Below the pieces are notes generated by a model. The model saw only the letters and a list, made by a program, of their open reading frames with translations. It did no database searches and was not told the origin of the DNA. 64,000 nt of DNA from Candidatus Eiseniibacteriota bacterium (GTDB taxonomy: Bacteria > Eisenbacteria > RBG-16-71-46 > CAIMUX01 > VGJL01), in contig JBHGAY010000009.1 of NCBI GenBank assembly GCA_041946735.1, positions 1-64,000 on the forward strand. Direction: 5' to 3'. Below, piece by piece: positions 15,391 to 60,326 of the stretch. Made by a program: the position numbers and the translations under genes. Positions within the stretch are counted from its first letter, which is position 1, and every line of letters begins with the position of its first letter.

Positions 15391-16785
<1,395 letters not shown>

Positions 16786-41644: not shown

Positions 41645-42883
41645 TCACCGCTTGTGGCACTGGATGCAGAGGTCTCCGTCCGGATTGCGCGGAAGGTACT
41701 TCTCGAAGCGCGCGCCGTGCATCTGATGGCAGCTCAGGCAGGTCACGGACTCGCCCGACCTGGGATCGATGACCTCGGGACCGACCGGGTGCGAGGCCTT
41801 GTGCGCGCTCTCGTGGCATCGCACGCACAGATCGATTTGGCGGGTGGAGAGAAGGAGAGGATCGTCCGACCCATGCGGCGTGTGGCAGTTCGTGCAGTCC
41901 ATCCCCTGATGCGTCAGGTACTTCTGCTTGTCTCCGCCGCTCTCGTTGAAGTGGCACCGCATGCAGAGATCCTTCTGTTCCCCGGCGAGCAGCTTGGTCG
42001 CGTTCGAGGCATGCGGGTTGTGACAGGCCACGCACGACTCCTCGGTGTCCAGGTTGTGCCGGTGCGCGAGCGCGAGCGACTTCTCGATCGACCGGTGACA
42101 ACCGGTGCAGGTCTTCTGCACGGACGCCTTCATCGCGAAGGCGGACGCTCCGTCGGTCGCGGCGTGGCAGCTTCCGCAGGAGCCTGCGGCGAACGGCGCG
42201 TGCTGGTTCGCCCTCAGGAGCTTCCGTGAGGCGGAGGCGTGCGGATCGTGGCAGGCCGCGCAGTCCGACGCTCCGATCGCGTATCCCTTGTGCGCGGCCT
42301 GGAAAGAGGTGTTCTGCGGATGGCACCGCGAGCAGAGGCCCGCGACGTCCTCCACGAGGAGCTTTCCTGCGCTCGATCCGTGCGGCTCGTGGCAGATCGA
42401 GCAATTCCCCGACTTCAGCGGAGCGTGGACGACCGGCGAGGCGAGCCATTGCGCGACCGGGGCGTGGCAGCTTCCGCAAAGCGACTTGGGCTCGGCGACG
42501 AGCTGGTTCGGAAGGGCGGAGGCGTGAGGGGAGTGGCAACCGTCGCACTCTCCCGCCGCCGCCGGCACGTGCACGCTCGCCTTCTTCGTCTCTTCCGCGA
42601 CGGCCGGATGGCAGGAAAGGCAGAGCGGTCCCGTTTCCTCCTGAAGAAGCGCCGCGTGTCGCGATGCATGCGGATTGTGGCACTGGGAGCACTTGCCGCT
42701 CCGGAACGCGGTGTGCAGGTGCGCGGCCTTCGTCTGCTCCCGCACGTCGGCATGGCACTCGTAGCAGACGGCCGGCTCGTCCACGGGCGGGATCTCGGCC
42801 GACACTCTCGCCGCGCTCCAACCGAGAAGCGCGAAGAGAAGCGTGGCGAGGCCGGTGATTCCGGAAGGGAATCGACTCCTCAC
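41645..42883 (-). CDS. periplasmic multiheme cytochrome c (16 CxxCH; doubled-CxxCH family)
   Basis: Signal peptide and 16 CxxCH motifs in repeated H..P...C..CH.PH.S....LL......C..CH units. GTGA overlap with the upstream cytochrome. Confidence 0.9.
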   Translation of the reverse strand: MRSRFPSGITGLATLLFALLGWSAARVSAEIPPVDEPAVCYECHADVREQTKAAHLHTAFRSGKCSQCHNPHASRHAALLQEETGPLCLSCHPAVAEETKKASVHVPAAAGECDGCHSPHASALPNQLVAEPKSLCGSCHAPVAQWLASPVVHAPLKSGNCSICHEPHGSSAGKLLVEDVAGLCSRCHPQNTSFQAAHKGYAIGASDCAACHDPHASASRKLLRANQHAPFAAGSCGSCHAATDGASAFAMKASVQKTCTGCHRSIEKSLALAHRHNLDTEESCVACHNPHASNATKLLAGEQKDLCMRCHFNESGGDKQKYLTHQGMDCTNCHTPHGSDDPLLLSTRQIDLCVRCHESAHKASHPVGPEVIDPRSGESVTCLSCHQMHGARFEKYLPRNPDGDLCIQCHKR

Positions 42884-44880
42884 GGCTTGCCCCCCTCCTT
42901 CCCGGCCGGTTCGCGATGGCAGACTTCGCACGCATTGCTGTCGAACGGCTGATGGCGCAGCTTGGCGATCAATCCTTCCCCATCGGATCCATGCGGGTCA
43001 TGGCACTTCGCGCAGTCCAGATCCGTCCCCGCCTCCCCGAGATGCGCGGCGCGGAACTCGGTCGCCTCCCCGTCGTGGCAGGCGAGACAGGTGGCCGGCA
43101 TGGCGCTCGTGAGAAGCGACGGGTGCTCGCTCTCGTGCGCCTGATGACACGACAAGCACTGTCCTTCCGCGGCCGGCGGGTGCTTTCCCGATTCGGCCAG
43201 CGTCTCCTGCACCTCCTTGTGGCAGTCGAGGCAGAGCGCCCCGGGCTCCTCCGGAAGCAGCTTCGCGATCTTCCCTCCATGGGGAAGATGGCAGCTCGTG
43301 CAGTCCCCTTCGCGGACCGGCTGGTGTCCGGAGGGGGCCGCCGCCGCCTCTCCCCGGACATCGCCGTGGCAGCCGCCGCAAGTCTCTGCGACCGGAGCCG
43401 CCATCAGATGCGCCTGCTCCGACGCGTGAGCAACGTGGCAGGTCTCGCACGCGCGCTCCTCGAACGGAGGATGGTGGACGGTCCGCTCCTGATCCTCGAG
43501 GAGCGACGCATGACAGCCGGTCGAGCAGAGCTCCGCCGGATCCACCTTCAGCAGATGCTCGTTCGCGGAGGCGTGAGCGGCGTGGCAGTCGTTGCAGTCG
43601 CCGGTCTTGACCGGCATGTGGATGCTCGTCTCCGCGCTCCATGCGGCCGTCTGCTCGTGACAGTCGCCGCACAGGTCGGAGCGGTTCTTCGCGGTCAAGG
43701 CAGGATAGTCGGACCCGTGCGGGCGGTGGCAGTCGAGACAGCTGCCTCCTTCGAACGGGGCATGGACGAACGTGGCCTCCGGGCCGCGAAGGTCCGAATG
43801 GCAGCGAAGACAGAGGTCGTTCGCCGGGACGGCGATCAGTCTTGCCTCCGTCCGGCCATGCGCCTGGTGGCAGAGCGTGCAGTCCTTCGAGGCCGGCTCG
43901 TGGCGCGAGGCTTTCGCGATCTCCTGCGCCACCTCTCCGTGGCAGCTGGTGCAGAGCGACGCAGCCGGCTTCACGAGGAGCGCCGGCTGCGTCGAGCCGT
44001 GAGGACGGTGGCAGTCGGTGCACATCCCAGCCGCGACCGGCTGGTGGACTCCCTCGCCCGGCGCCTCGTGGCAGCCGGTGCAGAGTTCGTTCGCGTCGGC
44101 GGCGTTCAAGGCGAACGGCTCCGCGTCGTCGGGCGGATGGTGGCACGCCTCGCACGATCCGTCGGCGACCGGAGCGTGGAAGGATACGGCGAGCAGCTTC
44201 GGACTGGCCGAGGAATGCGGCGCATGGCACTCCCCGCAGTCCTTCGAGGAGAGGTCATAGCCGGCGTGGGCACTGGCGAACTGCGGCTTGCCCGTCTCGT
44301 GGCAGTCGGCGCAGAGCGCGGTCTGCTCCTTCTTCAGTAGATGCTCGGCGTCGGAGCCGTGCATCTCGTGGCAGGCGGCGCAACCGTCCTTGAGGGGTGC
44401 GTGGCGATGCTCTCGTTCGAATCCGGCTCGATCATGGCACGAGAAGCATGCCTCCCCGCCGGCGGCTCGCATCAGGCCCCGGGCGTCGCTCGCATGGGGA
44501 TCGTGGCAGGCGGTGCACTTCCCTTGAGCGGCCGGAGCGTGCGTGTTCGCGCGGTCCAAGCCGAGCGCGGCGCGGTCGTGGCAGGTATAGCAGAGGGCCG
44601 CTCCGTCCTCCTTGAGGCGCAGCGCGCCGACGAGGCCGTGCGGCTTGTGGCAGGAGAGGCATTCCTTCGCCGCGAACGGGGCATGCTGCACTGACCCGGG
44701 AAACTGTGAGACGGGATGGCACTTCAGGCAGGACTCGTCCTTGCCCGAGAAGCGCCGGCCTCGCTTGACCTGGCCGGCAGCGGGATCCGCGGCGACGGCA
44801 GCGAGGCCGAGCGCGAGCAACGCGCAGGCGATTCCTGTCCAGGAAACGGAGCAAGTCATCCGCGCCGGGACTCCCCTCAT
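42880..44880 (-). CDS. very large multiheme cytochrome c (25 CxxCH + 1 CxxxCH)
   Basis: Signal peptide and 26 heme-binding motifs counted by hand, including CSTGCH. Confidence 0.9.
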   Translation of the reverse strand: MRGVPARMTCSVSWTGIACALLALGLAAVAADPAAGQVKRGRRFSGKDESCLKCHPVSQFPGSVQHAPFAAKECLSCHKPHGLVGALRLKEDGAALCYTCHDRAALGLDRANTHAPAAQGKCTACHDPHASDARGLMRAAGGEACFSCHDRAGFEREHRHAPLKDGCAACHEMHGSDAEHLLKKEQTALCADCHETGKPQFASAHAGYDLSSKDCGECHAPHSSASPKLLAVSFHAPVADGSCEACHHPPDDAEPFALNAADANELCTGCHEAPGEGVHQPVAAGMCTDCHRPHGSTQPALLVKPAASLCTSCHGEVAQEIAKASRHEPASKDCTLCHQAHGRTEARLIAVPANDLCLRCHSDLRGPEATFVHAPFEGGSCLDCHRPHGSDYPALTAKNRSDLCGDCHEQTAAWSAETSIHMPVKTGDCNDCHAAHASANEHLLKVDPAELCSTGCHASLLEDQERTVHHPPFEERACETCHVAHASEQAHLMAAPVAETCGGCHGDVRGEAAAAPSGHQPVREGDCTSCHLPHGGKIAKLLPEEPGALCLDCHKEVQETLAESGKHPPAAEGQCLSCHQAHESEHPSLLTSAMPATCLACHDGEATEFRAAHLGEAGTDLDCAKCHDPHGSDGEGLIAKLRHQPFDSNACEVCHREPAGKEGGKP

Positions 44881-44938
44881 CCCCCCATCCTCTCCATCGG
44901 CCAACTGCCCCCTTGCCCCCTCGATCCCGTCCCGCGAC

Positions 44939-46636
44939 CTACGAGCCGGAGCCAAAGTACTCGTCGATCGCCTTCTCGTCCCGCACGATCCTCGAAGCCG
45001 CCTTCAACGCTTCGAGCTGCCGGTCCAGGATCTCGTTGAACTTCTGCTGGAACATCACCCGGCGGATTTCGCCGTCGGCCTCCTCGATCGTTCGAAGCGG
45101 CCCGGGTCGGCGATCCTTCATCTTCACGAGAAGCCAGCCCGTCTCGACCGCGAACGGGCCGCCGATGCCGCCGATCGAGATCGTCTTGAGCTGCTCGGCC
45201 ATGGGCGGCGGCAGCGTCCCAAGGCCGATCCATCCCCGGTCTCCGATCGGATCCCCGGCCGCGGCTTCCGCCTTCTGCTTGAGAAACGCGAAGTCCGCGC
45301 CTCTGTTCAGCCGCTCGAGCGTCGCCTCCGCCTCCTCCTGCGTCGGCAGGAGAATGGTGAGAAGTTGGATGTCGTCGGGTCCCCGGAACTCCTCCTGGTG
45401 GCTCTCGTAGTAGTCGCGAAACTCTTCGTGCCGAAACGTGATCTTCGGGACGACCATCTCCTTCAGATAGAGATCGATCAGCACCTCGGCCCGCTTCTGC
45501 TCCACCTTCCTCCGGACCTCCGGATCGTCCAGGAAGCCGCCGTCCCGAGCCGAGCAGTAGAGCACGAGATCCTCGATCTTCGTGTCGATGCCGCGCTGGA
45601 GAAGGGTGTCGAACGGCGCCGTCGCCTCGGTCATCGCGCCGTGGGAGACGGCCCGGCGAAGCGCCCCCTCCGTCACCGTGTCGCAGCCGGCCACCGTCAG
45701 CGCCGCCCGCGTCGATTCGCGAAGGAACGTCCCGGTGAGAACGGCGTCCGAGTCCGCCTCGAGAGCCGCGATCGCCTCGGGATCGATCTGCACCGGGATC
45801 GCCTGCTTCCGCGCGCCGACGAAATCCCGCCAGGCCTTCTCCTTCGCCGCGCTCTGGAGGAAGCCGATCACCTTCGCGCGAACCTTTCGGTAGTCGCTCG
45901 TGTCCGGCTCGTCCCGTGACTCCATCCGGACGAGGCTGAAGAGGCTGCCATACGCGAACGGCCGGGAGATCTCCCCCGCCTTCAGGTCGATCGCCGCCGC
46001 ACGGACGGGGATCTCGACGTCGATCCAGGGTCCGAGGTGATGGAGGCCACCCCTCGCGGACCAGGAGTCGCGGGAGCGCTGGCGCGCGAGGCTGTCCATC
46101 GAGGCGCCGGCGCGAATCGCGGACAGCACCTCCTCCGCCTCCTCCATCGATGCGACGGAGATCTGGCGTATCTGCAGCTTCCAGTAGTACTCCCGGAAGT
46201 GGGCCAGCGCCTGCTCCTCGGCAACGGGGGGAGGCGGGACATACGCCGAAGCGACGTACCGCCGGATCGCCTGTTGTCGCCGCTCCTCCGCGATCGCCGC
46301 CTGCGCTTCGGGCTCCTCGTCCAGACCGATCGATTCGGCTTCACGGACGAGCAGCCGGTCGTGGATCAGCTTCGTGAGCAGCTTGCGGTAGTCGAACGAT
46401 TCCTTGCGATCGCGACTCATCGTCTGATGAGTCCGGATCAGAAGCTCGTCGAGGTCGCACGCCCGGATCGTGTCTTCGTCGACGATCGCGAGAACGGTCG
46501 CCTCCGCGGCTCCCTTCGGTCCGGAAGATCGAGCCGGCGGGGCGACCGCGATCATAGCCGCCAGGCCGATGCCCGCGAGGAGGACGAGAGGGGGCACGAG
46601 CGCGCGCGCGCCGCTCGGTTCATCGCCTCGACGCAT
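44939..46636 (-). CDS. exported PpiC/SurA-type peptidyl-prolyl isomerase with two parvulin-like domains
   Basis: Signal peptide, VLAIVDEDTI, 'LARQRSRD....RGG', GEISRPF, and a second unit 'GADFA....GDRGWI...IGGPF'. Confidence 0.8.
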   Translation of the reverse strand: MRRGDEPSGARALVPPLVLLAGIGLAAMIAVAPPARSSGPKGAAEATVLAIVDEDTIRACDLDELLIRTHQTMSRDRKESFDYRKLLTKLIHDRLLVREAESIGLDEEPEAQAAIAEERRQQAIRRYVASAYVPPPPVAEEQALAHFREYYWKLQIRQISVASMEEAEEVLSAIRAGASMDSLARQRSRDSWSARGGLHHLGPWIDVEIPVRAAAIDLKAGEISRPFAYGSLFSLVRMESRDEPDTSDYRKVRAKVIGFLQSAAKEKAWRDFVGARKQAIPVQIDPEAIAALEADSDAVLTGTFLRESTRAALTVAGCDTVTEGALRRAVSHGAMTEATAPFDTLLQRGIDTKIEDLVLYCSARDGGFLDDPEVRRKVEQKRAEVLIDLYLKEMVVPKITFRHEEFRDYYESHQEEFRGPDDIQLLTILLPTQEEAEATLERLNRGADFAFLKQKAEAAAGDPIGDRGWIGLGTLPPPMAEQLKTISIGGIGGPFAVETGWLLVKMKDRRPGPLRTIEEADGEIRRVMFQQKFNEILDRQLEALKAASRIVRDEKAIDEYFGSGS

Positions 46637-47681
46637 GATCCTCCCGCGGCTGTTCTTCGATCTTCGCAACGAGGCGATCGAGGGACTCCTCGACAAGGCG
46701 CCCGAGGCTCGTGGTCCAGCCGAGCGGAAGAAGGCCGGCCCGTCGTTCTCCTCCAGTTTGTTCCTCGATCGCCTGGAACAGATGGCCCGTGCGGGCGTCG
46801 ACCAGGCGAACGCCATAGGCGAGCCGCGGCATCGCCATCTGGGCGTCCCCTTGCGACTCGACGGCCTCGTCGACCTCTCCGGTGATCGCGAGATCGATGG
46901 CCAGATCCTCGCGTAGAGCGCGGAGCGTCTCGAGATCGATCCCTCCGCGCGGCGCGACATGCAGGCGCTCGAAGAGCCGCCGGAGCAAGCCCGGCTCGAC
47001 GATGTCATAGCCATGGGCGAACAGCACGGGGAGCAGAAGATCCGAGACGAGGGGGCCGTCCTGGGGATCCTGCGGGCTTCCATCGAACGGGACGATCGCG
47101 ATCCGTCCCTGCGTGGGCCCCGTTCTCTTGCCGTCCAGGCAGGCGGCGAGACGCGCGATCGCCTCGCGCACGACGTCCCTCGCGAGGAGATCCGGATCGC
47201 GGACCCTCCCGATCTCGAACAGCGAAGCGTGGTCGAGCCCTGAGGAGGCGGCCGAAGCGGCGGCGATCACGCGGAGATCGGACGGCGCGAGCAACCGGAG
47301 GGCGACGGCAATCTCGGGGTTCTCCCCCTCCTGGTAGAGAATCACCGAACCGAGCAGGAGCGCCTCGGCGCCTGTCGCCTCCGCAATCCGCGCGCCGTCC
47401 TCTTGATCGAGCGAGGCCAGCGAGCGGATCCGGTGCTCGCGCAGGACTCCGCGAACCTGCTCGTCGTCGAGGAGCCGCCACCGCTTCGCCGCCTCCTCCC
47501 GCACGATCGGCAACACCTTCTCGGCGCCCGAGCCGTCCGCCGTGCCATCGGCAAGGCCGAGGACAGCGACGGCGAGAACGCCTTCGGGCGCCGTCTCGGG
47601 CATGGCCGTCTGCGCGAAAGCCGCGGTGGAAACCGCGGAGATGGAGGCGACGAGAAGGATGCCGAGCAGGGCCGCACGCAT
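46620..47681 (-). CDS. exported protein with two CsgG/TolB-N-like alpha/beta domains
   Basis: Signal peptide; VAVL..., IAIVPF...GYDIVEPG, ITGEV and VRLVDARTG patterns. Confidence 0.55.
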   Translation of the reverse strand: MRAALLGILLVASISAVSTAAFAQTAMPETAPEGVLAVAVLGLADGTADGSGAEKVLPIVREEAAKRWRLLDDEQVRGVLREHRIRSLASLDQEDGARIAEATGAEALLLGSVILYQEGENPEIAVALRLLAPSDLRVIAAASAASSGLDHASLFEIGRVRDPDLLARDVVREAIARLAACLDGKRTGPTQGRIAIVPFDGSPQDPQDGPLVSDLLLPVLFAHGYDIVEPGLLRRLFERLHVAPRGGIDLETLRALREDLAIDLAITGEVDEAVESQGDAQMAMPRLAYGVRLVDARTGHLFQAIEEQTGGERRAGLLPLGWTTSLGRLVEESLDRLVAKIEEQPREDHASRR

Positions 47682-47683
47682 CG

Positions 47684-48280
47684 TCAATGCACCAGGGTGC
47701 GGATCGTCCGGTCGACGCACCGTCGTGTCACTTCGCTCGCCGAGGCATCGTCCGATCCGAGGAGCGAGCCCCAGAAGCTGCGTCCATCCTCCGTGTGCGT
47801 GGCGGACCAGACCGTCGATCCCCTTTCGACCTCCACGAGCCTGGCCGTCAGAGTGATGACCGGCGTGCTGGAGGCGCCGCTGCGAGCCGTACCCGACTCT
47901 CCCACGCTTCCGAGGAACAGCGCTTGCGTACTGAGCTCTTTCCCTATGTCGACGATCTGCTGCTCGGTAAGCTCCGCCGTCCGCGTCAGCCCGTACTTCT
48001 CGAGGACGCGCGTCACCTCCCCCGGCTCGACCACTTCAAACGCCCCGGTCGCGAGAAGCTCCGAGACGAAATACCGGGTCGTGCGGAACGCGGCTCCCTG
48101 GTCCTGGCTCAGGTTCTCGAACGGAATGACCGCGACCTTCTCGACGTAGTTGAAATCGTAGTCGGGATGGAGAAACACAGTCGGCCTGCTTCCGGCGCAT
48201 CCCGAGCCGATCACGGCGGCCAACAGCGGCAGCAGGACTCCGATCCCGGGGAACGAGCGGACTGGTTTCACGGTTCTCAT
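47684..48280 (-). CDS. CsgG/GNA1162-like lipoprotein
   Basis: Lipobox IGSG-C; KVAVIPFENLS, FEVVEPGEV, LFLGSV and RLVEVERGSTVWS. Confidence 0.7.
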   Translation of the reverse strand: MRTVKPVRSFPGIGVLLPLLAAVIGSGCAGSRPTVFLHPDYDFNYVEKVAVIPFENLSQDQGAAFRTTRYFVSELLATGAFEVVEPGEVTRVLEKYGLTRTAELTEQQIVDIGKELSTQALFLGSVGESGTARSGASSTPVITLTARLVEVERGSTVWSATHTEDGRSFWGSLLGSDDASASEVTRRCVDRTIRTLVH

Positions 48281-48287
48281 CCTGTCG

Positions 48288-50423
48288 CTAGAAGGTGGTC
48301 CGGATCCCCTGCTGGAGAGACGTCGTGCTGCTCCCTCCCGCCTCTCGAAAGTCCGAACGGGATCCGGTCAGGTAGAGGCTCGTACGGGAGTTGAGGTCGT
48401 ACTCCAGCGTGGCTCCGTACCTCTCGGTCGCGGTTCCACCCGCGTAGCTGTCCAGCTCCGCCTGGGCGCTCAGGCGCACCTTGCCCGTCAGAAGCCATCC
48501 GAGCGCGTATTCCTGCGTCACCGTGCTGCCATGGTCGTCGCTCACGCTCGCCGCGGCGCGAAGGTCGATCTTTCTCGTGGCGTTCCAGTCGAGATCGAGG
48601 CGTCCCTGCGTCCGCACACGCACCGTCTCGGTCGGGATCGTCCGGGTATCCTGATGCTGCAACGACGCGCTCATATTGAGCGCAGGATGGAGCGAACCGC
48701 CGAGTGTCGCGCCATAGCTCCAGGTGTCGTGTCGAAGGCGGCCGAGGTAGTCATTGTCCCGAATCTTGCCGCCTTCGAGCCCCAGCCGGAGCTCCGGGAG
48801 CGGAGTCCCCTGAAAGCGGACCAGGACCGAGTTGTTCTCCAGGCTCCGACGCTCGTCCAGGAAGCTCAGGCGCGTTTGCGCGGTCAGATCGAGCTGGATC
48901 GTCGACAGAGGATCGAACTGCAGTGTGTAGGAGCCGAGCCTCTCCGTCACGTCCCCGATCCCCTCCCGCGACTCCTCCAGCCCCTGTTGCCAGCGCGCTG
49001 AATGCTGGAACAGGCGCGACTGGCGTAAGCGGCCGGCGAGCCGATAGTACGCGCTCGTCCGGCTTCCAACAACCGCCTCCCCCGTCTTGTGGCGGTAGCC
49101 GAGGTTGATGGAGGCGTCCGCCGCCTCGGAGAACTTCATCTGTCCGCCGACGTCGGCGATATGGGCCAGCTCCTCCCGCCGGTCCTCGTCCTCGCCGGGG
49201 ATCCCCTGCAGCACCTCGATCTCGGTGACGAGGACGTCCACGATCTCATTCAGGCCTTGCTTGACGACCTTGACATATCGCGTCTCCACCGGGACGAGCA
49301 GTATCTCGTAGCGGTTGAGCCCCGGATTGAAGAGTGGCGCTCGATCCTGAGGGACCAACCGCCAGGTCAGATTGTCGTCCGAGACGTAGGCCGCCCAGCC
49401 CGGCTGCGATCCGGAGGACCGGTCCGTGTAGAGGTACAGCGCGCGAATCTCGCGAGAGAATCCTAGATCCGCACCGGCGTTGGTTCCCTCGACCGCTCCT
49501 CCGATCCGGACCGGCGGCTGGGTCGCCCCTTGCCGGTCCCCGTCTCCGAGACCCGGGAGCGGGTCGAGCGAGCCGAACTCCGGCGTCAGATCTTCGGCGA
49601 AGAGAGGAGTGAAGTCGGGAATGGGATCCAGGATCTCCTCGCCAACGGTCCGCCGATCACGCTGGAAGCGGTCGGAGAACGTGTACGCGGCGTTCACGCG
49701 GAGATGATTGGAGAAGCCCCGAGTGGACGTGTCAAGACGAGCGCGGTGCCCCGTGAGGTCGCTCTGCACGCCGTGGATCACGTTCTCGGTCCTACGCCTG
49801 TCGAACTGATAGGTGACCGACTGCCCTTTCCAGGTATGCCGGATCGAGGCCTGCCCTTCCTTGTCGCGGATGTCCTGGGAGAGGTCGGCGCCACGATCGA
49901 AGATGTGATCCGCATCGAAGCGGAAGGTCAGCCTCGGATACCGGACCGCTCGGGTGGACCCATGGATCGTGAAGTTGTCCGAGATCACGTCGCCGGCCAG
50001 GCTGGACGCATGGGCCGTGCGGCGACGGATGCCCGCGCCGAGCGTCAACGCGCGGCCGCCATAGAGGATCTCGGCGGACGGCTGCACTTCGCGGTTCCAG
50101 AGGTCGGTCGCCTCGGCCTGCCGCTGGTCGGCCTTGGTGTAGAGGATGCCGGCGCGTAGATTCAGGTGCTTCACGAACGTCTTCGACCAGTTGAGCGTGT
50201 AGTGCTGCCGGACATTCCCTTGATCGTCCCCGTCGATCTCCGACTGCACCGCGCTGACGTCGATGGAGCCGCTGAACGCCTGCGGAAGGATCGCTGCGCG
50301 AGCGGAGGGAAACGAGAGGAGAAGCAGACTCAGGGCCGCACCCGTCCACCGCCCCGCACTCCCGATTCCGAGCACTCGAGTCACTCCGATCGTTCTCCCC
50401 CTCGGCCGCGAGGACGCCCGCAC
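48288..50423 (-). CDS. outer-membrane beta-barrel protein with an inserted discoidin-like domain
   Basis: Signal peptide, long run of amphipathic beta strands, C-terminal Phe (GIRTTF), and an internal 'YVSDDNLTW...TRYVKV...EIEV' segment. Start uncertain. Confidence 0.7.
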   Translation of the reverse strand: MRASSRPRGRTIGVTRVLGIGSAGRWTGAALSLLLLSFPSARAAILPQAFSGSIDVSAVQSEIDGDDQGNVRQHYTLNWSKTFVKHLNLRAGILYTKADQRQAEATDLWNREVQPSAEILYGGRALTLGAGIRRRTAHASSLAGDVISDNFTIHGSTRAVRYPRLTFRFDADHIFDRGADLSQDIRDKEGQASIRHTWKGQSVTYQFDRRRTENVIHGVQSDLTGHRARLDTSTRGFSNHLRVNAAYTFSDRFQRDRRTVGEEILDPIPDFTPLFAEDLTPEFGSLDPLPGLGDGDRQGATQPPVRIGGAVEGTNAGADLGFSREIRALYLYTDRSSGSQPGWAAYVSDDNLTWRLVPQDRAPLFNPGLNRYEILLVPVETRYVKVVKQGLNEIVDVLVTEIEVLQGIPGEDEDRREELAHIADVGGQMKFSEAADASINLGYRHKTGEAVVGSRTSAYYRLAGRLRQSRLFQHSARWQQGLEESREGIGDVTERLGSYTLQFDPLSTIQLDLTAQTRLSFLDERRSLENNSVLVRFQGTPLPELRLGLEGGKIRDNDYLGRLRHDTWSYGATLGGSLHPALNMSASLQHQDTRTIPTETVRVRTQGRLDLDWNATRKIDLRAAASVSDDHGSTVTQEYALGWLLTGKVRLSAQAELDSYAGGTATERYGATLEYDLNSRTSLYLTGSRSDFREAGGSSTTSLQQGIRTTF

Positions 50424-50506: not shown

Positions 50507-51562
50507 TTACGGATTCGAGCCCTCGTCGTCCGCGTCCTTGACGTGGCACTTGTTGCAGAGCGAGCGCTGATGCTCGTCGTAGGGGTTCGGGATCGCGTAG
50601 CTACCCGACTCGACGCCGTCTTCGGCCAAGAGCGTGAGATTGAAGTCCCAGCGGCCGGCGTTCGGCGCGGAGGTCGCGTGCGCGCGGTGGCAGCTGATGC
50701 AGGAGACCTGGCTGCCGGCGCTGGGACCCATCGTCGACTCGATCGTCATCGACGCGTCCTCGAAGGGAACCGCGGCCAGGTACGCCGTCGCCTGCGTTCC
50801 GCCCTCGTAGTCGCTCGTCCCGTTGTACATGTTGTAGTTGTCGGCGATGCTCCCGCCGACCGTCTCGCCCGACGGGTGGATGAGCGCGGTGCCGTTGTTG
50901 TGGTAGTCGCCGTGGCAGTTTGCGCACCAGGCGCTCATTCCGCCCTGATAGGCGGTGTGGTAGTTGTTCGCCTCGGGGGCGCTGTCGCTGAAGTTGATTC
51001 CCTCGGCGGTCGGCGCCGCGTTCTCGAAGAGGAAGTAGCCGTCGTTCACCATCCGGCCCGCGCCGTACAGCAGCCGGAACGCCTGGGTCCCGTGCGGGTC
51101 ATGGCAGCTCGAACACGCGAGATGATCCGACCGGAACGAACCTCCGGGAGCGGTGACGAGGACCGGGTCGGCGACCGAGCCGTACGAGGGGGCGATGATG
51201 TTGTGTCCCGCCTTGTGCCCCGGAATCGGGTTCTGGCCACCGTTGTGACCGTCGTTGATGTTGTCCTCGAGCAGGTAGGTGAAGTTGCCGGCGCCCTTCT
51301 CGGGCGGCGGATTCAGCGGGTCGTTCCAGAACACCTTGCCACGGCTCGTCGCGTGGCACGAGAGGCACATCTCGCTCGGGTTGGCCTCTTTCAGGAGCCA
51401 GGCGTTTCCGTTCGGATGGTCCGGGTCGATCGGAACCCCATCCTCGCTGTTGTGCATCGTGTGGCACCCTCTGCAGGCCGCCACTCCGCCGTCATGGAAT
51501 GCGAAGCTGGGGGTCGCGAGGACGAAGCAGATTCCCAGCCCGATGATGATCATCCTGTGCAT
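50507..51562 (-). CDS. OmcS-like hexaheme c-type cytochrome (nanowire family)
   Basis: Signal ending SFA, then FHDGGVAACRGCHTMHNS, CLSCH, GHNIIAP, TAPGG, CSSCHDPHG, GMSAWCANCH, CISCHRAHA and QRSLCNKCHVKD. These are collinear with the Geobacter OmcS motifs as recalled. Confidence 0.88.
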   Translation of the reverse strand: MHRMIIIGLGICFVLATPSFAFHDGGVAACRGCHTMHNSEDGVPIDPDHPNGNAWLLKEANPSEMCLSCHATSRGKVFWNDPLNPPPEKGAGNFTYLLEDNINDGHNGGQNPIPGHKAGHNIIAPSYGSVADPVLVTAPGGSFRSDHLACSSCHDPHGTQAFRLLYGAGRMVNDGYFLFENAAPTAEGINFSDSAPEANNYHTAYQGGMSAWCANCHGDYHNNGTALIHPSGETVGGSIADNYNMYNGTSDYEGGTQATAYLAAVPFEDASMTIESTMGPSAGSQVSCISCHRAHATSAPNAGRWDFNLTLLAEDGVESGSYAIPNPYDEHQRSLCNKCHVKDADDEGSNP

Positions 51563-51693: not shown

Positions 51694-52806
51694 CTATCGA
51701 CGAACGGCGTATCCACTGTCCGGATCGATCCCGACGGCTTGCGCATTCGCTTCTCGAATGAAGCGCGGCACACGGCACATCTGGACCTTCCCCTCGAACC
51801 ACTGCCCGACGTACACGATCTCCTTGCCGTCCGTGGCGAGCAGAGTCGGGTGGTAGAACCATCCCGGGCTGGATCCCAGCCCGCCGAATTCACCGAGGAA
51901 GGTTCCTTCCCGATCGAAGCAGAGGACCGCATAGCGGTGCTTGTCGAGAACCAGAAGAAGTCCCTCGTCGGTTCCTGCGACGGCCACGGGAAAGTTCAGC
52001 TCCCCGATGTTGTTGCCCCCGTAACCAACCGTGCGCAGGAACTTCCCCGCCAGCGAAAAGACCTCGACGGTCGCGGCCGGCGTGATCGGAACGTAGAGAC
52101 AGTCTCCGATTCGTTCGATCGAGCCGTATCCGACTTCGCTGGGCCGCGGCTCCCGCTCCACCCCGACAGGGAAGGAGCGAACGCGGCGGCCGCCCGCATC
52201 GAGGACGACGACGACGCCCTCATCGGGATCGAGCAGGTAGATCGAGCCTTCGTCATCGACCGCGAAGCTGCTCGCGTGGGCCGGGAGATCTTCCGGCTGT
52301 CCCACGGTTGCGAGAAAAAGCCCGTCGAAGTCGAAGAGGAAGAGTCGGGATCCCTCAGGCGTAGAGCCGAGGACGAGGATCCGGCCGAGTGGATCGATCG
52401 CTACATCGAGGGGTGCCCCGAAGCGAGAGCCACCGCGGAACTCGAAGCGGTAGGTTCCTTCCGCATCGAAGACGAGTATCCGGTTGTGTCCCGCTTCCGC
52501 CAGCACGAGCTCCTTCGCCGCCGGATCGAAGGCGACCGCTTGAGGTCGGAGCAGTTCGTCGGTCTCCCCGGGGAGGTTCACCATCCGGACGAAGTCCGAA
52601 GGAACCGCCCGAGACGGGGGCGCTTCCGCGCGAGGCGGGGGCGCTTCCGATGCTGCAGACTGTGCAATCGACATCGAAAGAAGGCCTGAGGCGAGCGAAA
52701 GGAGAACCGCATGCAGCGCGGCTCTTGCCTGGTGCGGAAAGAAGGCGGGGGCCCGGGTTTGGCGATCCGGCCGGCTCGCCGTTAGCATTACTTTCTGTGA
52801 ATCCAT
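51694..52806 (-). CDS. exported NHL-repeat beta-propeller protein
   Basis: Repeats PQAVAFD, PLDVAID, FAVD, LNFPVAVA and WFYHP, with a signal-like segment. Start uncertain. Confidence 0.8.
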   Translation of the reverse strand: MDSQKVMLTASRPDRQTRAPAFFPHQARAALHAVLLSLASGLLSMSIAQSAASEAPPPRAEAPPSRAVPSDFVRMVNLPGETDELLRPQAVAFDPAAKELVLAEAGHNRILVFDAEGTYRFEFRGGSRFGAPLDVAIDPLGRILVLGSTPEGSRLFLFDFDGLFLATVGQPEDLPAHASSFAVDDEGSIYLLDPDEGVVVVLDAGGRRVRSFPVGVEREPRPSEVGYGSIERIGDCLYVPITPAATVEVFSLAGKFLRTVGYGGNNIGELNFPVAVAGTDEGLLLVLDKHRYAVLCFDREGTFLGEFGGLGSSPGWFYHPTLLATDGKEIVYVGQWFEGKVQMCRVPRFIREANAQAVGIDPDSGYAVRR

Positions 52807-52990
52807 TCGCGATCAATAATATCAATAAGGGACGGCTAGTGACAAAGGCGTTAGCTGCCTTATTTATGAAGTACATCATCAGACGCGCTAATGTAATCTC
52901 TGGCCGGGACACGCATCCACTGAAGCACTTCTGAGCTAAGCTCTTCGAAAATAACAAGATTCAGTGTTGCGTCTGTCGCATTGGGAATGG

Positions 52991-53178: not shown

Positions 53179-53733
53179 TCAATCCCCGTGGGCTTTTGCT
53201 GCCGCGGCCGCGGCATCGAGCCGGCGGCGGCAGTCCTCACAGAAGTCGTCCCCTTTGAGGTCGACCTCCTCCACTCCGGAGGAGAAGTGCATGGCGCAGT
53301 CGAACGAAGCGCAGTGGACGAGGCCGAAGGCGTGCCCCAGCTCGTGGAGCGCCTCCTTCTCGGCCCGGTGGTAGAAAAGCTCCGAGTCCTCCGGCAGCCC
53401 ATAGAAAGTCGGACGGAGCCGGGTGAGCGAGAAGGTGGCGGCGGGCCCGCCGAGATGGGCTTCACCGAACACGAACGTCAGGATCGGGATGTGGAGGTCC
53501 GCGTCGATCACGCCGAGGATCTTCTGCCCGCTCTCTTCCCTTCCTCGGGCCAGGGCATCGAGGATCTTCGTCGAGTGGTGCTGTCGCCGGACCGGGTCAT
53601 AGGCGAAATCGGCCAACAACGGCTCGGGCGCGACACTCACCTCCGCTTCGAGTCTCTCCGCGAGAAAGAGAGAGAGATAGGAGGTGAGAGCCTCGTCGAC
53701 GACCCCCACCGGAACGATGAGGATGCGGCGCAC
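53179..53733 (-). CDS. archaemetzincin family Zn-dependent metalloprotease
   Basis: FVFGEA, EKEALHELGHAFGLVHC, CAMHFS and FCEDC. Confidence 0.9.
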   Translation of the reverse strand: MRRILIVPVGVVDEALTSYLSLFLAERLEAEVSVAPEPLLADFAYDPVRRQHHSTKILDALARGREESGQKILGVIDADLHIPILTFVFGEAHLGGPAATFSLTRLRPTFYGLPEDSELFYHRAEKEALHELGHAFGLVHCASFDCAMHFSSGVEEVDLKGDDFCEDCRRRLDAAAAAAKAHGD

Positions 53734-53736
53734 CTC

Positions 53737-55085
<1,349 letters not shown>

Positions 55086-55089
<4 letters not shown>

Positions 55090-56723
55090 TTCGCCACCTC
55101 CGGTTGCCCTTCCCGGTTTTCCGGGGGCTGGGGAGGAAGATGGAAGCGGAAGCTCGTTCCTTCCCCAGGAACGGATTCCACGTCCACCTTGCCTCCGTGC
55201 CCCTCCAGGATCCCATACACAACGGCCAGGCCGAGCCCGGCGCCGCCTTCCTTCGTCGTGTAGAACGGCTCGAAGAGATGGCGCCGCGTCTCCTCGTCCA
55301 TCCCCACTCCCGTGTCCCGGATCTGCACGCAGATCCCGCGTCCCTCCGAATCGCGCCGGGTCGTCACCGACAGCACTCCGGAGCCCGACTCGCCCTGCAT
55401 CGCTTCGCACGCGTTGATCAGGACGGCGACGAACGCCTGCCGGATCTGCTGCGGATCGCAAACGATCGAGGGCAGATCGGCGGCCAGGTCGAGCTCGCAG
55501 CGCAGCCCCTGCAGGTCGATCTGGTGCTGGACGAGGCGGACGGTTCCCCGGACGAGTTCGTTGATGTCGCACGGCTCCGCCTTCGGCCTCGACGGGCGCG
55601 AAAACTGAAGGAGATTCTTCACGATCTCGCCGCAGCGGGTCGCCTCGCTTTCGATCTGCGCGAGGATCTCCTGGGTTTCCGACGAAGCGGAGTCCGGACC
55701 GTTCTCTGCCGCGCGCCTACTCGCGCGCTTGCCGAGCAGCTTGGCGTAGGTGCGGATACCGGCCAGGGGATTGTTGATCTCGTGAGCGACGATCGCGGCG
55801 AGCTTCCCCATCGACGCCATCTTCTGCGTCTGCAGCATCTCCTCCTGCGCCCTCTCCAGCGCCCGCGACTTCTCCTCCACCCGCGATTCCAGCGTGCGAG
55901 CCCAGGCCGCCTCCTTCTCGCGCGCCAGCGCCAGCTCCGCGGTCATCCGGTTGAACGAGACGGCCAACCGTCCCAGCTCGTCGTCCGACGCGATCGGGAT
56001 GCGCCCGGTGAGGTCGCCCCCGCCGATCCGCTGAGTCTCCTTCATGAGGCGCTTCACCGGAACGTGCACCATCCGGTACAGCAGCCAGGAGCACAGGGCG
56101 ATCAGCGCCAGCAGGACGAGCGAGATCGAGACGATCAGCTGCCGCGAGACGCGAGCCAGCTCGCGATCCACGTTCTCGAGGGTCATCTGCACGTCGAGCA
56201 CTCCCAGCACCCTCTTGTCCGCTGGGTGGGCATGGCACGAGGCATTCGCGCAGCTCGGCTCGTTCTGGATCGGGGCGATCATGCCGAGAGTCCGGTGGCC
56301 GTCCGGGTTGCGGAAGATGCGGAAGCGCTCCGACTGCGGGATCTCCGGGACCGGCTCCTGGCCCCGATGGCAGTTCACGCACGCCTCGGCGCGCGGATCG
56401 ACCATCTGCCCCACTTCCTCGGAGTGAGTCGAGTAGCGGATCCGTCCCCCCTCGTCGTAGATCCGGATCCGGTCGAACTCGGGCTGCTCGCCGGTCGCCT
56501 GGATGATCTCGAAGATTTCTTGCCGTTCGTTGCGGAACATGAAGGACCGGGTGCTGCGACGGATCAGATCGCAGACCCGGTCGGTGTCCCGTACGACCGT
56601 CTTCTCCATCTGCCTTCGGCTCTCGCCCACCACCCAGAAGCCGAGCAGCCCCAGGAACAGGGCCACTCCACCGGCGAGAAGCAGCGAGAGCCGAAACGCG
56701 AGTGCCCTCGGTCCGAACCTCAT
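55086..56723 (-). CDS. sensor histidine kinase with a heme-c-motif periplasmic domain and HAMP
   Basis: TM, CVNCH and CANASCH, TM, HAMP, AHEINNPL, NACEA, DTGVG, FEPFYTTK and GLGL. Confidence 0.92.
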
Positions 56724-57883
56724 CGATTCCCCGCGCGGTCCTCCCTCCCGGCCGCCCCCACGTAGGCAGGCTGCGCGTGCGTGCCGTGCCCGAAGAGGGG
56801 AAGATGGCGCGCGGCGAGCCCGAAGACGGCGAACCCGATCGCGACGATCATGACCGTGATCGAGACCTCCGTCCAGGCGGGGAAGTAGTCCGCCCGAATC
56901 GACGCCTCCATTCCGGTGATGCTGACGTTCAGCCGGTGCATCACGAACCCGAGGATCGCGAGCAGCGAGATCGCGAACTGGCCGCGCGGATGCTGCCGCA
57001 CCTTTCCGACGAGCAGCAGCGCGATCGGCGCGAGCAGCCCGAGGAACACCTCGATCCAGAAGAGGCCCGCCTCGGGCGTGGCCTGGACCGCGTAGCGGAT
57101 CGCCCCGCGCTGGACGACGTCCAGGATCCGCAGCAGGGCGTACGGAACGAGCAGGACCAGCGCCATCCGGCAGAGATCATGACGGACGTCGGGAGCGAGC
57201 GCGTGCCCGAACGCGCGCTGGCTCAGGAACGACTCCATCAGGACCATGCAGCAGCCGACCGCCAGCGCCGAGAGGAAGAACAGCACCGGCAGCCATGACG
57301 AGTACCAGAGCGGATGCAGCTTGTTCGGAACGATCAGGTAGAGCGAACCGAGCGACGACTGGTGCAGCGTCGAGAGGAGCACGCCGGCGATGATGAAGAA
57401 CGGCAGCGCCGATCGAACCAGCGAAAGGGCCCGCTTCCAGCGCAGCCGCTCCAGCACGGCGGGGCTGAACTCGACGGCGAGCACGGTCGTGTAGAGCATG
57501 ACGCACCAGGCGACCTCGAACATCACCGAGCGCGGGTTCCACATGACGATCGGATGCCAGATCATCCACGGCCTGCCGAGATCGATCAGCAAGGCGAAGA
57601 TGACGAGGAGGTAGCCGAGAAACGCGGTGAGGATTGCAGGCCGGATCACCGGCTCGAACCTCTTCACGTTGAAGATGTGGACGGTCGCGGCCATCGCGAA
57701 ACCGCCCGCGGCGAGCCCGACGCCGCAGAGCAGATCGAAGCCGATCCAGAGCCCCCAGGGGAATCGGTCGCTCAGATGGGTGGCCGAACCCAGGCCCTGC
57801 GTGAAACGCAGAACGGTGCTGTAGAGACCGAGACCGAGGATCACCGCGAAGACGACACGCCAGAAGCCGAGGCGCACCTTCAT
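56720..57883 (-). CDS. NrfD/PsrC family (HybB/HmcC-like) integral membrane subunit
   Basis: RFTQGLG, PWGLWIGFD, DLGRPW, SVMFEVAWCVMLY and LSTLHQSSLG; about 10 TM helices. Confidence 0.9.
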   Translation of the reverse strand: MKVRLGFWRVVFAVILGLGLYSTVLRFTQGLGSATHLSDRFPWGLWIGFDLLCGVGLAAGGFAMAATVHIFNVKRFEPVIRPAILTAFLGYLLVIFALLIDLGRPWMIWHPIVMWNPRSVMFEVAWCVMLYTTVLAVEFSPAVLERLRWKRALSLVRSALPFFIIAGVLLSTLHQSSLGSLYLIVPNKLHPLWYSSWLPVLFFLSALAVGCCMVLMESFLSQRAFGHALAPDVRHDLCRMALVLLVPYALLRILDVVQRGAIRYAVQATPEAGLFWIEVFLGLLAPIALLLVGKVRQHPRGQFAISLLAILGFVMHRLNVSITGMEASIRADYFPAWTEVSITVMIVAIGFAVFGLAARHLPLFGHGTHAQPAYVGAAGREDRAGNR

Positions 57884-58656
57884 CACTCCACCCCCATCCC
57901 TTCCGCCCGCTCGCGCGCCGCCATGCGCTCGCGAGCCAGAACCATGCGCCGGTTGATGATCCAGTAGAGGCCCGACAGGAGGCTCCCGCCCACCAGGACG
58001 ACGTTCGGCAGCTTCGAGAGAACCGCCTCGGTGTACTCCTCCATCGGATGGCCGGGCAGGTTCACCGGGAGTCCCAGCTCCGCGAAGGAAACGTCCGAGA
58101 GGATCAGGACCGAGGTCCCGCCTCCCTCCTCCTCGCCATAGACCTGCTGGACGTAGACGTCCGGCTGCTGCGCGATCCTCTCGTGCGCGATCTTCAGCAG
58201 CTCCTCGCGATCCCCGAAGAGGGTCGCTCCGGTCGGGCAGGCCTCGGCGCAGGCGGTGGGAAGTCCCTGTGCGAGTCGCGGCGCGCAAAGGATGCACTTG
58301 CGGACGGCCGGGTTCGTCGAGGACCACTCGTAGCGCGGCACCCCGTACGGGCAGGCCATCATGCAGTAGCGGCAGCCGATGCACCGAGACTCGTCGTAGA
58401 GCACCGGCCCCTCGGGGGTCTTGTGGAACGCGCCGACGGGACAGACGGACGCGCAGGTCGGGTGGAGGCAGTGCATGCACATCCGCCGGATGTTGCGCGA
58501 ACCGTCCGCTACCTGCCTCTCCTGCACGACCGTGTAGGACTTGTCGGAGAGCTCGTTGCCTTCCGTCTCGGGAAGGTGGTTCGCCTCACGGCAGGCCTCG
58601 CGGCACGCACCGCATCCCACGCACTGGGTGACATCGAACAGGATCCCCTTACCCAT
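57883..58656 (-). CDS. 4Fe-4S dicluster electron-transfer subunit (HybA/HmcB-like)
   Basis: CVGCGACREAC, CMHCLHPTCASVCP, CIGCRYCMMACP and CILC...CAEACP, with a C-terminal TM. Confidence 0.92.
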   Translation of the reverse strand: MGKGILFDVTQCVGCGACREACREANHLPETEGNELSDKSYTVVQERQVADGSRNIRRMCMHCLHPTCASVCPVGAFHKTPEGPVLYDESRCIGCRYCMMACPYGVPRYEWSSTNPAVRKCILCAPRLAQGLPTACAEACPTGATLFGDREELLKIAHERIAQQPDVYVQQVYGEEEGGGTSVLILSDVSFAELGLPVNLPGHPMEEYTEAVLSKLPNVVLVGGSLLSGLYWIINRRMVLARERMAARERAEGMGVE

Positions 58657-58717
58657 GACCTCCCTCCGTCGTGAGCGTGCTGCAGCGCGCGCTCGCCGTA
58701 TCGATCCCCTCTTGAGA

Positions 58718-59371
58718 TCACTCCTGCGGGATCAGGAACTCGTGGACCAGCTTCTGACGGCTCGACGGATCCAGGGCGCGGAGCAGCCCGTGCGCCGGCT
58801 CTCCGCCGTCGGGAAGAGCGGCCGCGACCTCCGCGCGCAGACCGTGCAGCGACTCGCGCAGCCGGGCGAACTCGGCCGCGAGCCAGGCGGTTGCGTCCTC
58901 GGCGATCCGCAGAGGACGGATCTCCTCGCCCAGCCTCTCGGCCTTCAGCGTGCAGAGCCAGCGTGAGGGATCCGGCAGATCGGAGCCGCCCTCGGGACGC
59001 TGCGTCTCGAGGAGAACTCCGGAGACCGGAGAGGAGATCGGGATTTCCTGATTGCCGATCACGACCGAAAGCAGCGTCTGGCCGCGCTCGATCCTCGATC
59101 CCTCGGCCGCGAACCGCACCTCGTCGATCGGGCCGAAGAGCCGCTCCGCCAGCTCATCGAGACCCACATGCACTCTCCCGTCCGCCGCCACCGTCAGCCA
59201 GACGTGGGACGGATGGAGGAACATTCCCGCCGGCATGCGACGCGGGCCGGGCAGCTCCCGAACCGGCGCCGCTACAGGCGCCAACGCTGCCTTCCTCTTG
59301 CGCGACGCGACGACGATCGCGTCGACGCCGAGGAAGAACAGGATCGTCCCCAGCACGAAAAGCGGAACCAT
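58718..59371 (-). CDS. membrane-anchored GcvH-like protein lacking the lipoyl-lysine
   Basis: N-terminal TM, HPSHVW, VHVGLDE, SPVSG and W. VVIGNQ occupies the place of the ESVK hairpin. Confidence 0.75.
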   Translation of the reverse strand: MVPLFVLGTILFFLGVDAIVVASRKRKAALAPVAAPVRELPGPRRMPAGMFLHPSHVWLTVAADGRVHVGLDELAERLFGPIDEVRFAAEGSRIERGQTLLSVVIGNQEIPISSPVSGVLLETQRPEGGSDLPDPSRWLCTLKAERLGEEIRPLRIAEDATAWLAAEFARLRESLHGLRAEVAAALPDGGEPAHGLLRALDPSSRQKLVHEFLIPQE

Positions 59372-59383
59372 GACGTACCTCCT

Positions 59384-60121
59384 CTACCGGCGGCGCTCGC
59401 CGGACCGGAGCATCCGCTCCTCGATCAGGCGCCGCCGCACTTCGGGCTCGATGTGATCCAGAACCGCGAGATCGAGGGTGCCCCCATCCGGCACGCTGCC
59501 GAACGCGATCGTGCGCTCCTCGACGAGAAGGTCGCGGACTCTCTCCAGCTCCTCGCGCAGCCACGCGACTGTCCGCTTGCCGTAGAGCAGGCGGGAGAGA
59601 TCGTCCTGAAGCCGGTCCGGACGCACCCGGGCAAGCCAGGCGTGCGCGCGATCCAGCTTCCGAAAGCCTCTCGGGTCTTCCACGAGCGTTCGGTTGACGG
59701 AGAGGACTTTCCCGCTCACGGGACACGGGAGAACGACCTCGCCGGCATCGCCGAGGAAGACCCAGTTGCGCCGCTTGGGACCGACGTTCGCACCGGCGTC
59801 GGGGACTCGGAGCTCCTGGAGAGATCCCAGGAGCCGGCGGCCGAGATCATCGACACCGACGTGAACGTTCCCCAGCCCGCTGACGCGAACGCAGAGATGG
59901 CTCGGGTGGTAGAAGCCGGTCCGCGAGTAGCGGAGACCGCCGATCGCCTTGGGCGCCCCTCGCGCCTCCGCTGCCTCCTCATGCAGGGCGTGCACGGGCG
60001 GCGACGATCCCTCCCGCAACGCCTGGTCCACCAGGCAGTGATCGCAGTCGTAGCCGCGATCACAGAGTCGGAAGGACAAGACTCCGGCAGACATCCAAAC
60101 GCACTTGTAGAGCGGCTCCAT
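59384..60121 (-). CDS. GcvH-like protein with an N-terminal Cys cluster, lacking the lipoyl-lysine
   Basis: CVWMSAGVLSFRLCDRGYDCDHC, then HPSHL, VHVGVDD and PVSGKVLSVN. GAGGAG RBS region. Confidence 0.75.
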   Translation of the reverse strand: MEPLYKCVWMSAGVLSFRLCDRGYDCDHCLVDQALREGSSPPVHALHEEAAEARGAPKAIGGLRYSRTGFYHPSHLCVRVSGLGNVHVGVDDLGRRLLGSLQELRVPDAGANVGPKRRNWVFLGDAGEVVLPCPVSGKVLSVNRTLVEDPRGFRKLDRAHAWLARVRPDRLQDDLSRLLYGKRTVAWLREELERVRDLLVEERTIAFGSVPDGGTLDLAVLDHIEPEVRRRLIEERMLRSGERRR

Positions 60122-60160
60122 GACCTCTCTCCTCGCCATTCCGCGACCACATTCTTGTGA

Positions 60161-60176
60161 AGCAGGGAACATGCCC
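60161..60176 (-). promoter_or_regulatory. sigma54 (-24/-12) promoter of the gcvH-like/NrfD operon
   Basis: The minus strand reads GGGCATGTTCCCTGCT (GG-N10-GC). The operon encodes its own NtrC-type activator. Confidence 0.55.
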
Positions 60177-60326
60177 GATGCTACTCGTCCTCCAGAAAGC
60201 TCGCATCTCCTTGGGTTCCCTAGCTTTCCCGCCCCGCTGGTGAGACTCGCGAAGACTCGGTGTAGAGGAGTTCTGTTGATGGATTCATCACTGCAACAGG
60301 GAGTATAACACCGATCGGACGTGGCC

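Follow-up and report, generated by a model that had tools for sequence, protein, structure and literature searches.

A shortened OmcS-family hexaheme cytochrome encoded within a predicted reduced osc-type gene cluster

The window, by which we mean the whole 64,000-nucleotide stretch of DNA that was analyzed, carries on its reverse strand a gene for a multiheme cytochrome within a run of nine co-oriented genes (52806 to 40569, minus strand) separated by gaps of no more than 131 bp (Table 1). The open reading frame begins with ATG downstream of a GGAGG ribosome site, has a GC3 of 0.90 and agrees in base composition with the rest of the window. Hydropathy revealed a hydrophobic leader of 21 residues, after which the mature chain starts with FHDGGVAACRGCHTMHNS. 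Six CxxCH motifs are located at precursor residues 30, 66, 150, 213, 288 and 336, and the segments GMSAWCANCH and QRSLCNKCHVKD are both found. A search of sequencing runs returned two rows from one study, with shares of 0.45 and 0.21, neither of which was an RNA run.

Table 1. Features of the locus and its upstream region, in window coordinates
Feature	Position	Strand	Remarks
GcvH-like proteins, two	58718-59371, 59384-60343	-	
HmcB/HybA-like Fe-S protein	57883-58656	-	
NrfD/HmcC-like membrane protein	56720-57886	-	
HAMP histidine kinase, one CxxCH in sensor domain	55086-56723	-	
Sigma-54-type response regulator	53737 to about 55090	-	
M54 peptidase	53179-53733	-	
Sigma-70-like promoter consensus match (extended -10)	52816-52845	-	AT-rich gap upstream of NHL gene; consensus match only
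NHL-repeat beta-propeller protein	51694-52806	-	Pfam NHL, E 1.5e-8; homologs adjoin omcS in related loci; start codon uncertain
OmcS-family hexaheme c-type cytochrome	50507-51562	-	351 aa precursor, 330 aa mature
21-residue Sec-type signal peptide	51500-51562	-	hydropathy and alignment; ending A-x-A-like, SFA
Codon of His37 (mature His16)	51452-51454	-	equivalent to OmcS His16
Acidic 8-residue C-terminal extension past OmcS end point	50510-50533	-	
Predicted outer-membrane beta-barrel-like protein, about 700 aa, OscE position	48288-50423	-	likely start 50384 or 50375
LpoB/GNA1162-like lipoprotein, OscF position	47684-48280	-	33% to Geomonas counterpart, E 1.7e-27
Second secreted lipoprotein-like protein, OscG position	46620-47720	-	no Pfam match; 25% to Geomonas counterpart, E 7.5e-12
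SurA/PpiC-type peptidyl-prolyl isomerase (PPIase), OscH position	44939-46636	-	Pfam Rotamase_2, E 2.4e-20; 22% to Geomonas counterpart, E 3.9e-17
26-heme cytochrome, OscI/GSU2495 type	42880-44955	-	25 CxxCH and one CxxxCH; 36% to Geomonas 26-heme protein, E 5.9e-125
16-heme cytochrome, OscJ/GSU2494 position	41645-42931	-	motif count and Geomonas counterpart
7-heme cytochrome, last gene of cluster	40569-41543	-	homologs beside cluster in L005, L011, L012, L022

When the hexaheme protein was compared by phmmer with 177,635 distinct PDB sequences, OmcS of Geobacter sulfurreducens (6EF8/6NEF) was the single match at E ≤ 0.01. With an E value of 2.7e-42, this sole match led us to dismiss chance resemblance; it spans both halves of the protein and the last motif. 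The six CxxCH motifs are collinear with those of OmcS, and mature Phe1 (precursor Phe22) aligns with OmcS Phe1 (6EF8 residue 1). AlphaFold2, run without templates on the mature chain, gave a heme-free model with a pLDDT of 93.0 and a pTM of 0.90 from a 150-row alignment; a 30-row alignment gave a pLDDT of 37.9 and was discarded. Foldseek returned one match to this model at E ≤ 0.001, which was 6EF8 (E 2.2e-22, TM 0.77), and the next stood at E 1.5. Similarly, VIA-align over 48,161 chains gave 6EF8 a Z of 30.9 (rmsd 2.3 Å over 313 residues, 40% identity in the structural alignment), followed by MtrA in 6R2Q (Z 5.1) and OmcE (Z 4.1). The April 2019 release of 6EF8 falls later than the training cut-off of AlphaFold2, so this match was probably not memorized. 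The gene product is thus confirmed as a genuine, shortened OmcS-family hexaheme cytochrome. An earlier, sequence-only reading of the locus had proposed an OmcS-type protein of about 350 amino acids with this mature N-terminus and six CxxCH motifs, and all of these points stood; it had named a non-OmcS fold as evidence that would count against it, and the model matches OmcS. It misplaced the C-terminus, at CHVKD, after which eight further residues follow.

The RpoB protein of the genome is 64% identical to that of an Eisenbacteria genome, 60% to Zixibacteria, 57% to Acidobacteriota, 56% to Krumholzibacteriota and 52% to Geomonas, and in a small, six-row RpoB tree (just five references) it groups with Eisenbacteria, Zixibacteria and Krumholzibacteriota. 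A protein of G006, from the same GTDB family, is 100% identical to P0002, and one of G034, from the same order, is identical to P0024; NCBI labels both as Candidatus Eisenbacteria. Because the RpoB comparison and the labels of the relatives' proteins agree, a Desulfobacterota origin of the genome was ruled out. Judged from these sequences, the host is an uncultured member of Candidatus Eisenbacteria and is FCB-related, in keeping with what had been supposed from the letters of the window.

Homologs of the hexaheme are numerous: 4,429 of 6,752 candidates passed E ≤ 1e-10, and the best 119 non-self matches of these 4,429 are 61-69% identical and 341-398 amino acids long, with named entries from Eisenbacteria, Zixibacteria and Acidobacteriota. 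A GTDB scan yielded at least 72 loci from 148 relatives, which form a biased sample. We built a quick maximum-likelihood tree of 82 mature proteins (SH-aLRT only, midpoint root), from which truncated loci, proteins with fewer than five motifs and one further homolog (L023) were left out and the G. sulfurreducens proteins were absent. It split with a support of 98 into 37 sequences from Eisenbacteria relatives, Krumholzibacteriota, Zixibacteria, Fibrobacterota, Ignavibacteriota, Gemmatimonadota, Acidobacteriota and one alphaproteobacterial label, and 45 sequences mostly from Desulfobacterota, Nitrospirota and Myxococcota. The window hexaheme falls in a 26-sequence subclade (support 100). In this quick tree it branches apart from all of the Desulfobacterota/Nitrospirota group and is therefore not placed nearer to OmcS than to the hexaheme paralogs OmcT, OmcJ and OscC (GSU2503, GSU0701 and GSU2501). 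These paralogs belong to the same family; they are extra copies beside a true omcS, whereas the window gene stands alone, directly after the NHL gene. As judged by sequence, the clade that contains it, called short-form below, spans Eisenbacteria, Zixibacteria, Krumholzibacteria and Acidobacteriota. A recent transfer from Geobacteraceae is unlikely, because the gene nests among FCB-related homologs (60-67% identity, versus about 30% to Geobacteraceae) and its composition matches that of the window.

Beyond the motifs and the fold, the protein shares with OmcS (GSU2504) an F-H mature start and six equivalent histidines. It differs in size: the mature chain has 330 residues versus 407 in OmcS, 77 fewer, which amounts to 55 versus 68 residues per heme. 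The spacing is 84 versus 93 residues between motifs 2 and 3, 63 versus 99 between 3 and 4, 75 versus 89 between 4 and 5 and 48 versus 72 between 5 and 6 (OmcS counted from the alignment), whereas the distance from His99 to motif 3 is 30 in both. Eleven residues follow the sixth motif, compared to three in OmcS. Compactness is graded across the family, with lengths of 326-375 residues (median 337) in 38 short-form sequences (L001-L029, L075-L082) and 352-441 (median 401) in the 45 others (L030-L072), the two groups having been divided by locus number after the tree was seen and containing kin that are not independent. A tail of 6-38 residues past the sixth motif is found in 38 of 38 short-form sequences, whereas in 38 of the 45 others the chain ends three residues past this motif; a tail of some length is thus common to the whole short-form clade. 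The C-terminus is expected close to the interface between subunits. The segments that surround motifs 1, 5 and 6, which meet at this interface, rank among the most conserved regions in both groups.

Filman et al. (PMC6584659) described all 12 axial ligands of OmcS as histidines, 11 from the same subunit and one, at heme 5, from the neighbor, and two reviews (one of them PMC12203936) agree on the neighbor-donated histidine. Because all 12 ligands are histidines, six are needed outside the CxxCH motifs. By hand count and alignment, mature His2, His16, His99, His136, His208 and His274 of the window protein correspond to OmcS His2, His16, His110, His147, His257 and His335, and they are conserved in 83, 79, 82, 82, 83 and 83 of 83 locus-derived homologs, respectively; two other histidines, 181 and 200, are kept in just 45 and 53 of the 83. 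The alignment to OmcS that the sequence-only reading had called for thus shows all six positions present, and they are candidate distal ligands for bis-histidine ligation of all hemes. The sole loss at His99 and His136 occurs in L023, a homolog with five motifs and an apparent frameshift.

We take OmcS His16 to be the inter-subunit ligand of heme 5, a role reportedly assigned by Wang et al. in 2019. In the literature searched, including the accessible text of PMC9094664, the residue number of this ligand was not found. The histidine of an HTMH segment that the sequence-only reading had singled out is mature His16, and the absence of an inter-subunit histidine, which that reading had listed as counter-evidence, was not observed in the alignment. 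His16 is kept in 38 of 38 short-form sequences and in 120 of 120 top matches. It is also kept in 41 of 45 sequences of the Desulfobacterota/Nitrospirota group, second copies included, so its retention does not discriminate wire-formers. It is the sole position lost in several intact proteins, which makes a role outside the monomer core plausible. The four homologs without it (L039:434-1501, L052:1008-2261, L060:10058-11209 and L069:10004-11146) are all Geobacteraceae or Geobacterales hexahemes, and they are natural candidates for non-polymerizing or chain-capping paralogs.

The surroundings of the gene, on which the sequence-only reading was silent, are the strongest supporting evidence. The order NHL, hexaheme, barrel, two lipoprotein-like genes, PPIase, 26-heme and 16-heme is that of the osc operon as represented in Geomonas and Geobacter (L042, L058, L062, L064), and Geomonas edaphica (L058) has homologs of the first eight cluster genes in the same order at 22-38% identity. 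The Osc letters used here follow gene order, size and heme count rather than a direct alignment with the G. sulfurreducens proteins. The NHL gene lies in what we take to be the position of OscA/GSU2505, and there is no room inside the cluster for a homolog of OscB, presumably GSU2502. The barrel-like protein, for which no Pfam or NCBIfam match was found, is 23% identical to its G. edaphica counterpart and has Atlas look-alikes in Acidobacteriota and Thermodesulfobacteriota. The CxxxCH of the 26-heme gene lies at residue 477 (window 43540 region), where relatives have 26 canonical motifs.

Three features set the cluster apart. It has one hexaheme gene, whereas the osc operon has omcS, omcT and oscC; it lacks the OscD-like beta-propeller between omcS and the barrel, represented in L058 by a protein of about 480 amino acids, and the intervening gap of 83 bp is otherwise empty; and it has the 7-heme gene in addition. 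A profile of eight homologs found no full-length OscD-like ortholog in the genome, only repeat proteins of about 950 amino acids elsewhere. Because the OscD-like gene is absent from it, we file the locus, on gene content, as a reduced osc-type cluster and not a full osc operon. Additional hexaheme paralogs (omcT, oscC) were not found in the genome either. For the G. sulfurreducens operon studied by Shen et al. (2025), PMC13194489 lists OscH as acting in folding, OscE, OscF and OscG in secretion, and oscC, oscI and oscJ as cytochromes, and OscD (473 aligned amino acids) was proposed to shape wire morphology. GSU2495 has 26 hemes (bioRxiv 2025.11.06.686851).

Homologs of the lipoprotein, the PPIase and the 26- and 16-heme cytochromes occur together in at least 30 of the 72 loci listed, many others being cut by contig ends. 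An OscD-like match was present in 20 of these 30 otherwise complete loci and undetected in 10, and 12 of the listed loci span at least 16 kb and have an OmcS homolog but none of the cluster genes. Among 40 relatives of the genome, an omcS-like match was found in 9 and the lipoprotein (E ≤ 1e-15) in 13, including 7 of the 9; the barrel query matched in 2 of 40 at E ≤ 1e-10, a low count that reflects how far the query has diverged as much as any absence. Upstream of the NHL gene, two overlapping matches to a sigma-70-like consensus, against a shuffle mean of 0.2, mark a candidate operon promoter. The sigma-54 consensus had three matches in the window versus 1.7 expected, none of them upstream of the cluster.

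Directly upstream lie seven further genes in the same orientation (53179-60343, minus strand). Among these, a putative heme-sensing regulator and a putative quinol-oxidizing module could control and feed the cluster. Homologs of the kinase and regulator flank several related loci, and the Fe-S/NrfD pair flanks almost none. Elsewhere the genome encodes system I cytochrome c maturation (CcmF, a CcmC-like protein and CcmE on C41), an NrfAH nitrite reductase pair and four heme-copper oxidase subunit I matches; the latter suggest a facultative respirer. A second multiheme cluster on C23 (G000:C23:78474-88135, L089) comprises six ORFs with 4, 4, 5, 9, 11 and 13 CxxCH motifs, including a cytochrome c/b fusion and a NapC/NirT-domain protein. 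The 11-motif protein is fused to a cytochrome b domain and is 33% identical to a Geomonas silvestris frame; by its architecture we take it to be CbcL-like. In all, 22 ORFs have three or more CxxCH motifs, compared to 70+ given for G. sulfurreducens (PMC13712944). There are six type IV pilin-like N-termini, which may be pseudopilins; pili have been implicated in OmcS secretion in Geobacter (PMC12307469).

We consider OmcS-like filament formation by the window hexaheme rather probable on this analysis. Our preferred reading goes further and holds, with a probability of roughly 0.55, that the filament would serve outward electron transfer and that the hexaheme is the single extracellular client of the reduced osc-type cluster. 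The protein would be exported by Sec and then receive its hemes from Ccm. Five hemes would be bis-histidine ligated from the protein's own chain, heme 5 would be completed by His16 of the next subunit, and the subunits would join head to tail to give an unbranched wire of hemes. The PPIase would chaperone the chain, and the barrel and the two lipoprotein-like proteins would pass it through the outer membrane. Electrons would cross the periplasm on the 26-, 16- and 7-heme cytochromes, coming from a quinol oxidase in the inner membrane, for which the CbcL-like protein on C23 and the NrfC/NrfD-type pair just upstream are candidates. Overall, the cell would respire in the absence of oxygen by passing electrons out to minerals, humics or partner cells.

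The main caution against a filament is that, among the four paralogs of G. sulfurreducens, a wire is known for OmcS alone; homology does not separate the four, and which of the many OmcS homologs are wires has been called an open question (bioRxiv 2025.11.06.686851). The strongest reply is that here a single gene serves the cluster as a whole: since the genome, which is 94.8% complete, has a single omcS-like gene, the machinery has only this candidate client. Also counting against the preferred reading are the position of the protein in the quick tree, the retention of His16 across the Desulfobacterota/Nitrospirota group, the C-terminal tail, the lack of an OscD-like gene, the OmcS homologs found without cluster genes, the four heme-copper oxidase matches and the small number of multiheme ORFs. 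The secretion mechanism has been called speculative even in Geobacter (PMC12307469), and in some studies neither growth on anodes nor the reduction of Fe(III) oxide is reported to have required OmcS (PMC13194489).

The same genes could be arranged differently. The barrel with the 26- and 16-heme cytochromes may form a porin-cytochrome conduit, with the hexaheme sitting at the outer end of this conduit or in the periplasm as a monomer or short oligomer, and His16 or an open heme 5 site would then dock a partner cytochrome and not another copy. This is unlikely in our estimation, though it has support in the three G. sulfurreducens paralogs without a known filament (bioRxiv 2025.11.06.686851) and in the structural neighbors of the barrel-like protein, which are outer-membrane barrels (MtrB/PioB, TM 0.48); the clade-wide tail and the missing OscD-like gene could also accompany a loss of polymerization. 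Against it, His16 would have no intra-subunit role in OmcS if it is the ligand of the neighbor's heme 5, and yet it is invariant among the short-form sequences, with its four losses all in Geobacteraceae or Geobacterales copies. The motif 1, 5 and 6 segments, at the interface, are among the best conserved in both groups, and dedicated chaperone and export genes have been retained for a single client.

The hexaheme may also polymerize for a purpose other than outward respiration. Its filament may take up electrons from Fe(II) minerals or partner cells and deliver them inward to reductases for oxygen or nitrite, or it may store electrons or act as a scaffold for biofilm. The heme-copper oxidases and NrfAH could be the sinks for an inward flow, a Krumholzibacteria MAG has both OmcS and Cyc2 (bioRxiv 2020.09.22.307553), and the roles of even the solved nanowires were described in a review as an outstanding challenge (PMC12954529). 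We nevertheless judge this to be quite improbable: the OmcS-like proteins characterized in the literature covered all act in electron export, including the Desulfurivibrio homolog (PMC12545173), and the genome encodes the CbcL-like protein. What probability remains beyond electron export through a filament and these two alternatives falls to a silent cluster.

Extending the filament reading from the window to its relatives, we tentatively propose, with less than even confidence, that OmcS nanowires have a second, deep branch in the short-form clade, assembled there by minimal machinery, with one 330-residue subunit, no OscD, OmcT or OscC, and a tail that would remodel the interface or act as an export or anchoring signal. 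If so, about 20% less protein per heme would make the wire thinner or less insulated than Geobacter OmcS, conductive filaments would be common in uncultured Eisenbacteria, Zixibacteria, Krumholzibacteria and some Acidobacteriota, and the nine-gene cluster would offer the simplest set of parts with which to reconstruct an OmcS wire in a different host.

This is not a new system. Wide distribution of OmcS with its companion genes has already been claimed in print, and the title of Shen et al. 2025 (Cell Chem Biol 32:239) calls the OmcS machinery widespread and ancient; the supplements of that paper may list this lineage. OmcS homologs are reported from diverse bacteria beyond Geobacter (PMC10954620; PMC12954529), among them the Krumholzibacteria OmcS, encoded alongside the iron oxidase Cyc2 (bioRxiv 2020.09.22.307553), Desulfurivibrio DA_402, induced over 100-fold on iron oxide (PMC12545173), and Thermincola CwcA (PMC12203936). 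These three, like the window protein, are non-Geobacter OmcS-like hexahemes for which filaments are predicted but not solved. The sequence-only reading, which had stressed OmcS in a non-Geobacter background, thus overrated the novelty, given thousands of homologs and the published Krumholzibacteria and other cases. The differences noted here are real: a chain shorter by 77 residues, the extra C-terminal tail and the minimal cluster. In the accessible text of the papers on these three proteins, neither an Eisenbacteria OmcS nor the short-form clade or its tail is described, and PMC8478452, which counts Eisenbacteria among taxa with iron-cycling genes, does not in its accessible text tie OmcS to them. 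Similarly, the short-form clade, its tail and a solved non-Geobacter OmcS filament were not found in the main texts accessible to us, including PMC9473688, PMC9094664, PMC13712944 and PMC12307469. The solved OmcS filaments in the literature covered come only from G. sulfurreducens. With this locus, Eisenbacteria join the lineages whose genomes point to a potential for extracellular electron transfer. The single-copy gene in a stripped cluster removes paralog confusion, and it offers a test case for whether His16 and the core cluster are enough for a filament and for which osc genes are essential.

Several minor observations were made on other genes. A seventh CxxCH is present in the OmcS homologs of L018, L020, L021, L026, L078 and L079, and the long-locus cases (L018, L020, L026) have no cluster genes nearby. 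The Acidobacteriota omcS homolog of L023 (L023:9980-11157), with its five in-frame motifs, has matching pieces in other frames and a complete cluster around it, and is probably an assembly or real frameshift. Outside the cluster, a 120-aa open frame with one CxxCH (window 15440-15802, minus strand) may be due to chance. Two multiheme proteins, G000:C71:127578-129101 (L090, 7 CxxCH) and G000:C1:238974-241679 (L092, 6 CxxCH), were considered as a second nanowire type and rejected, as neither matched OmcZ or OmcE in the PDB. Both end in a C-terminal FlgD Ig-like domain, which is possibly a secretion or surface tag.
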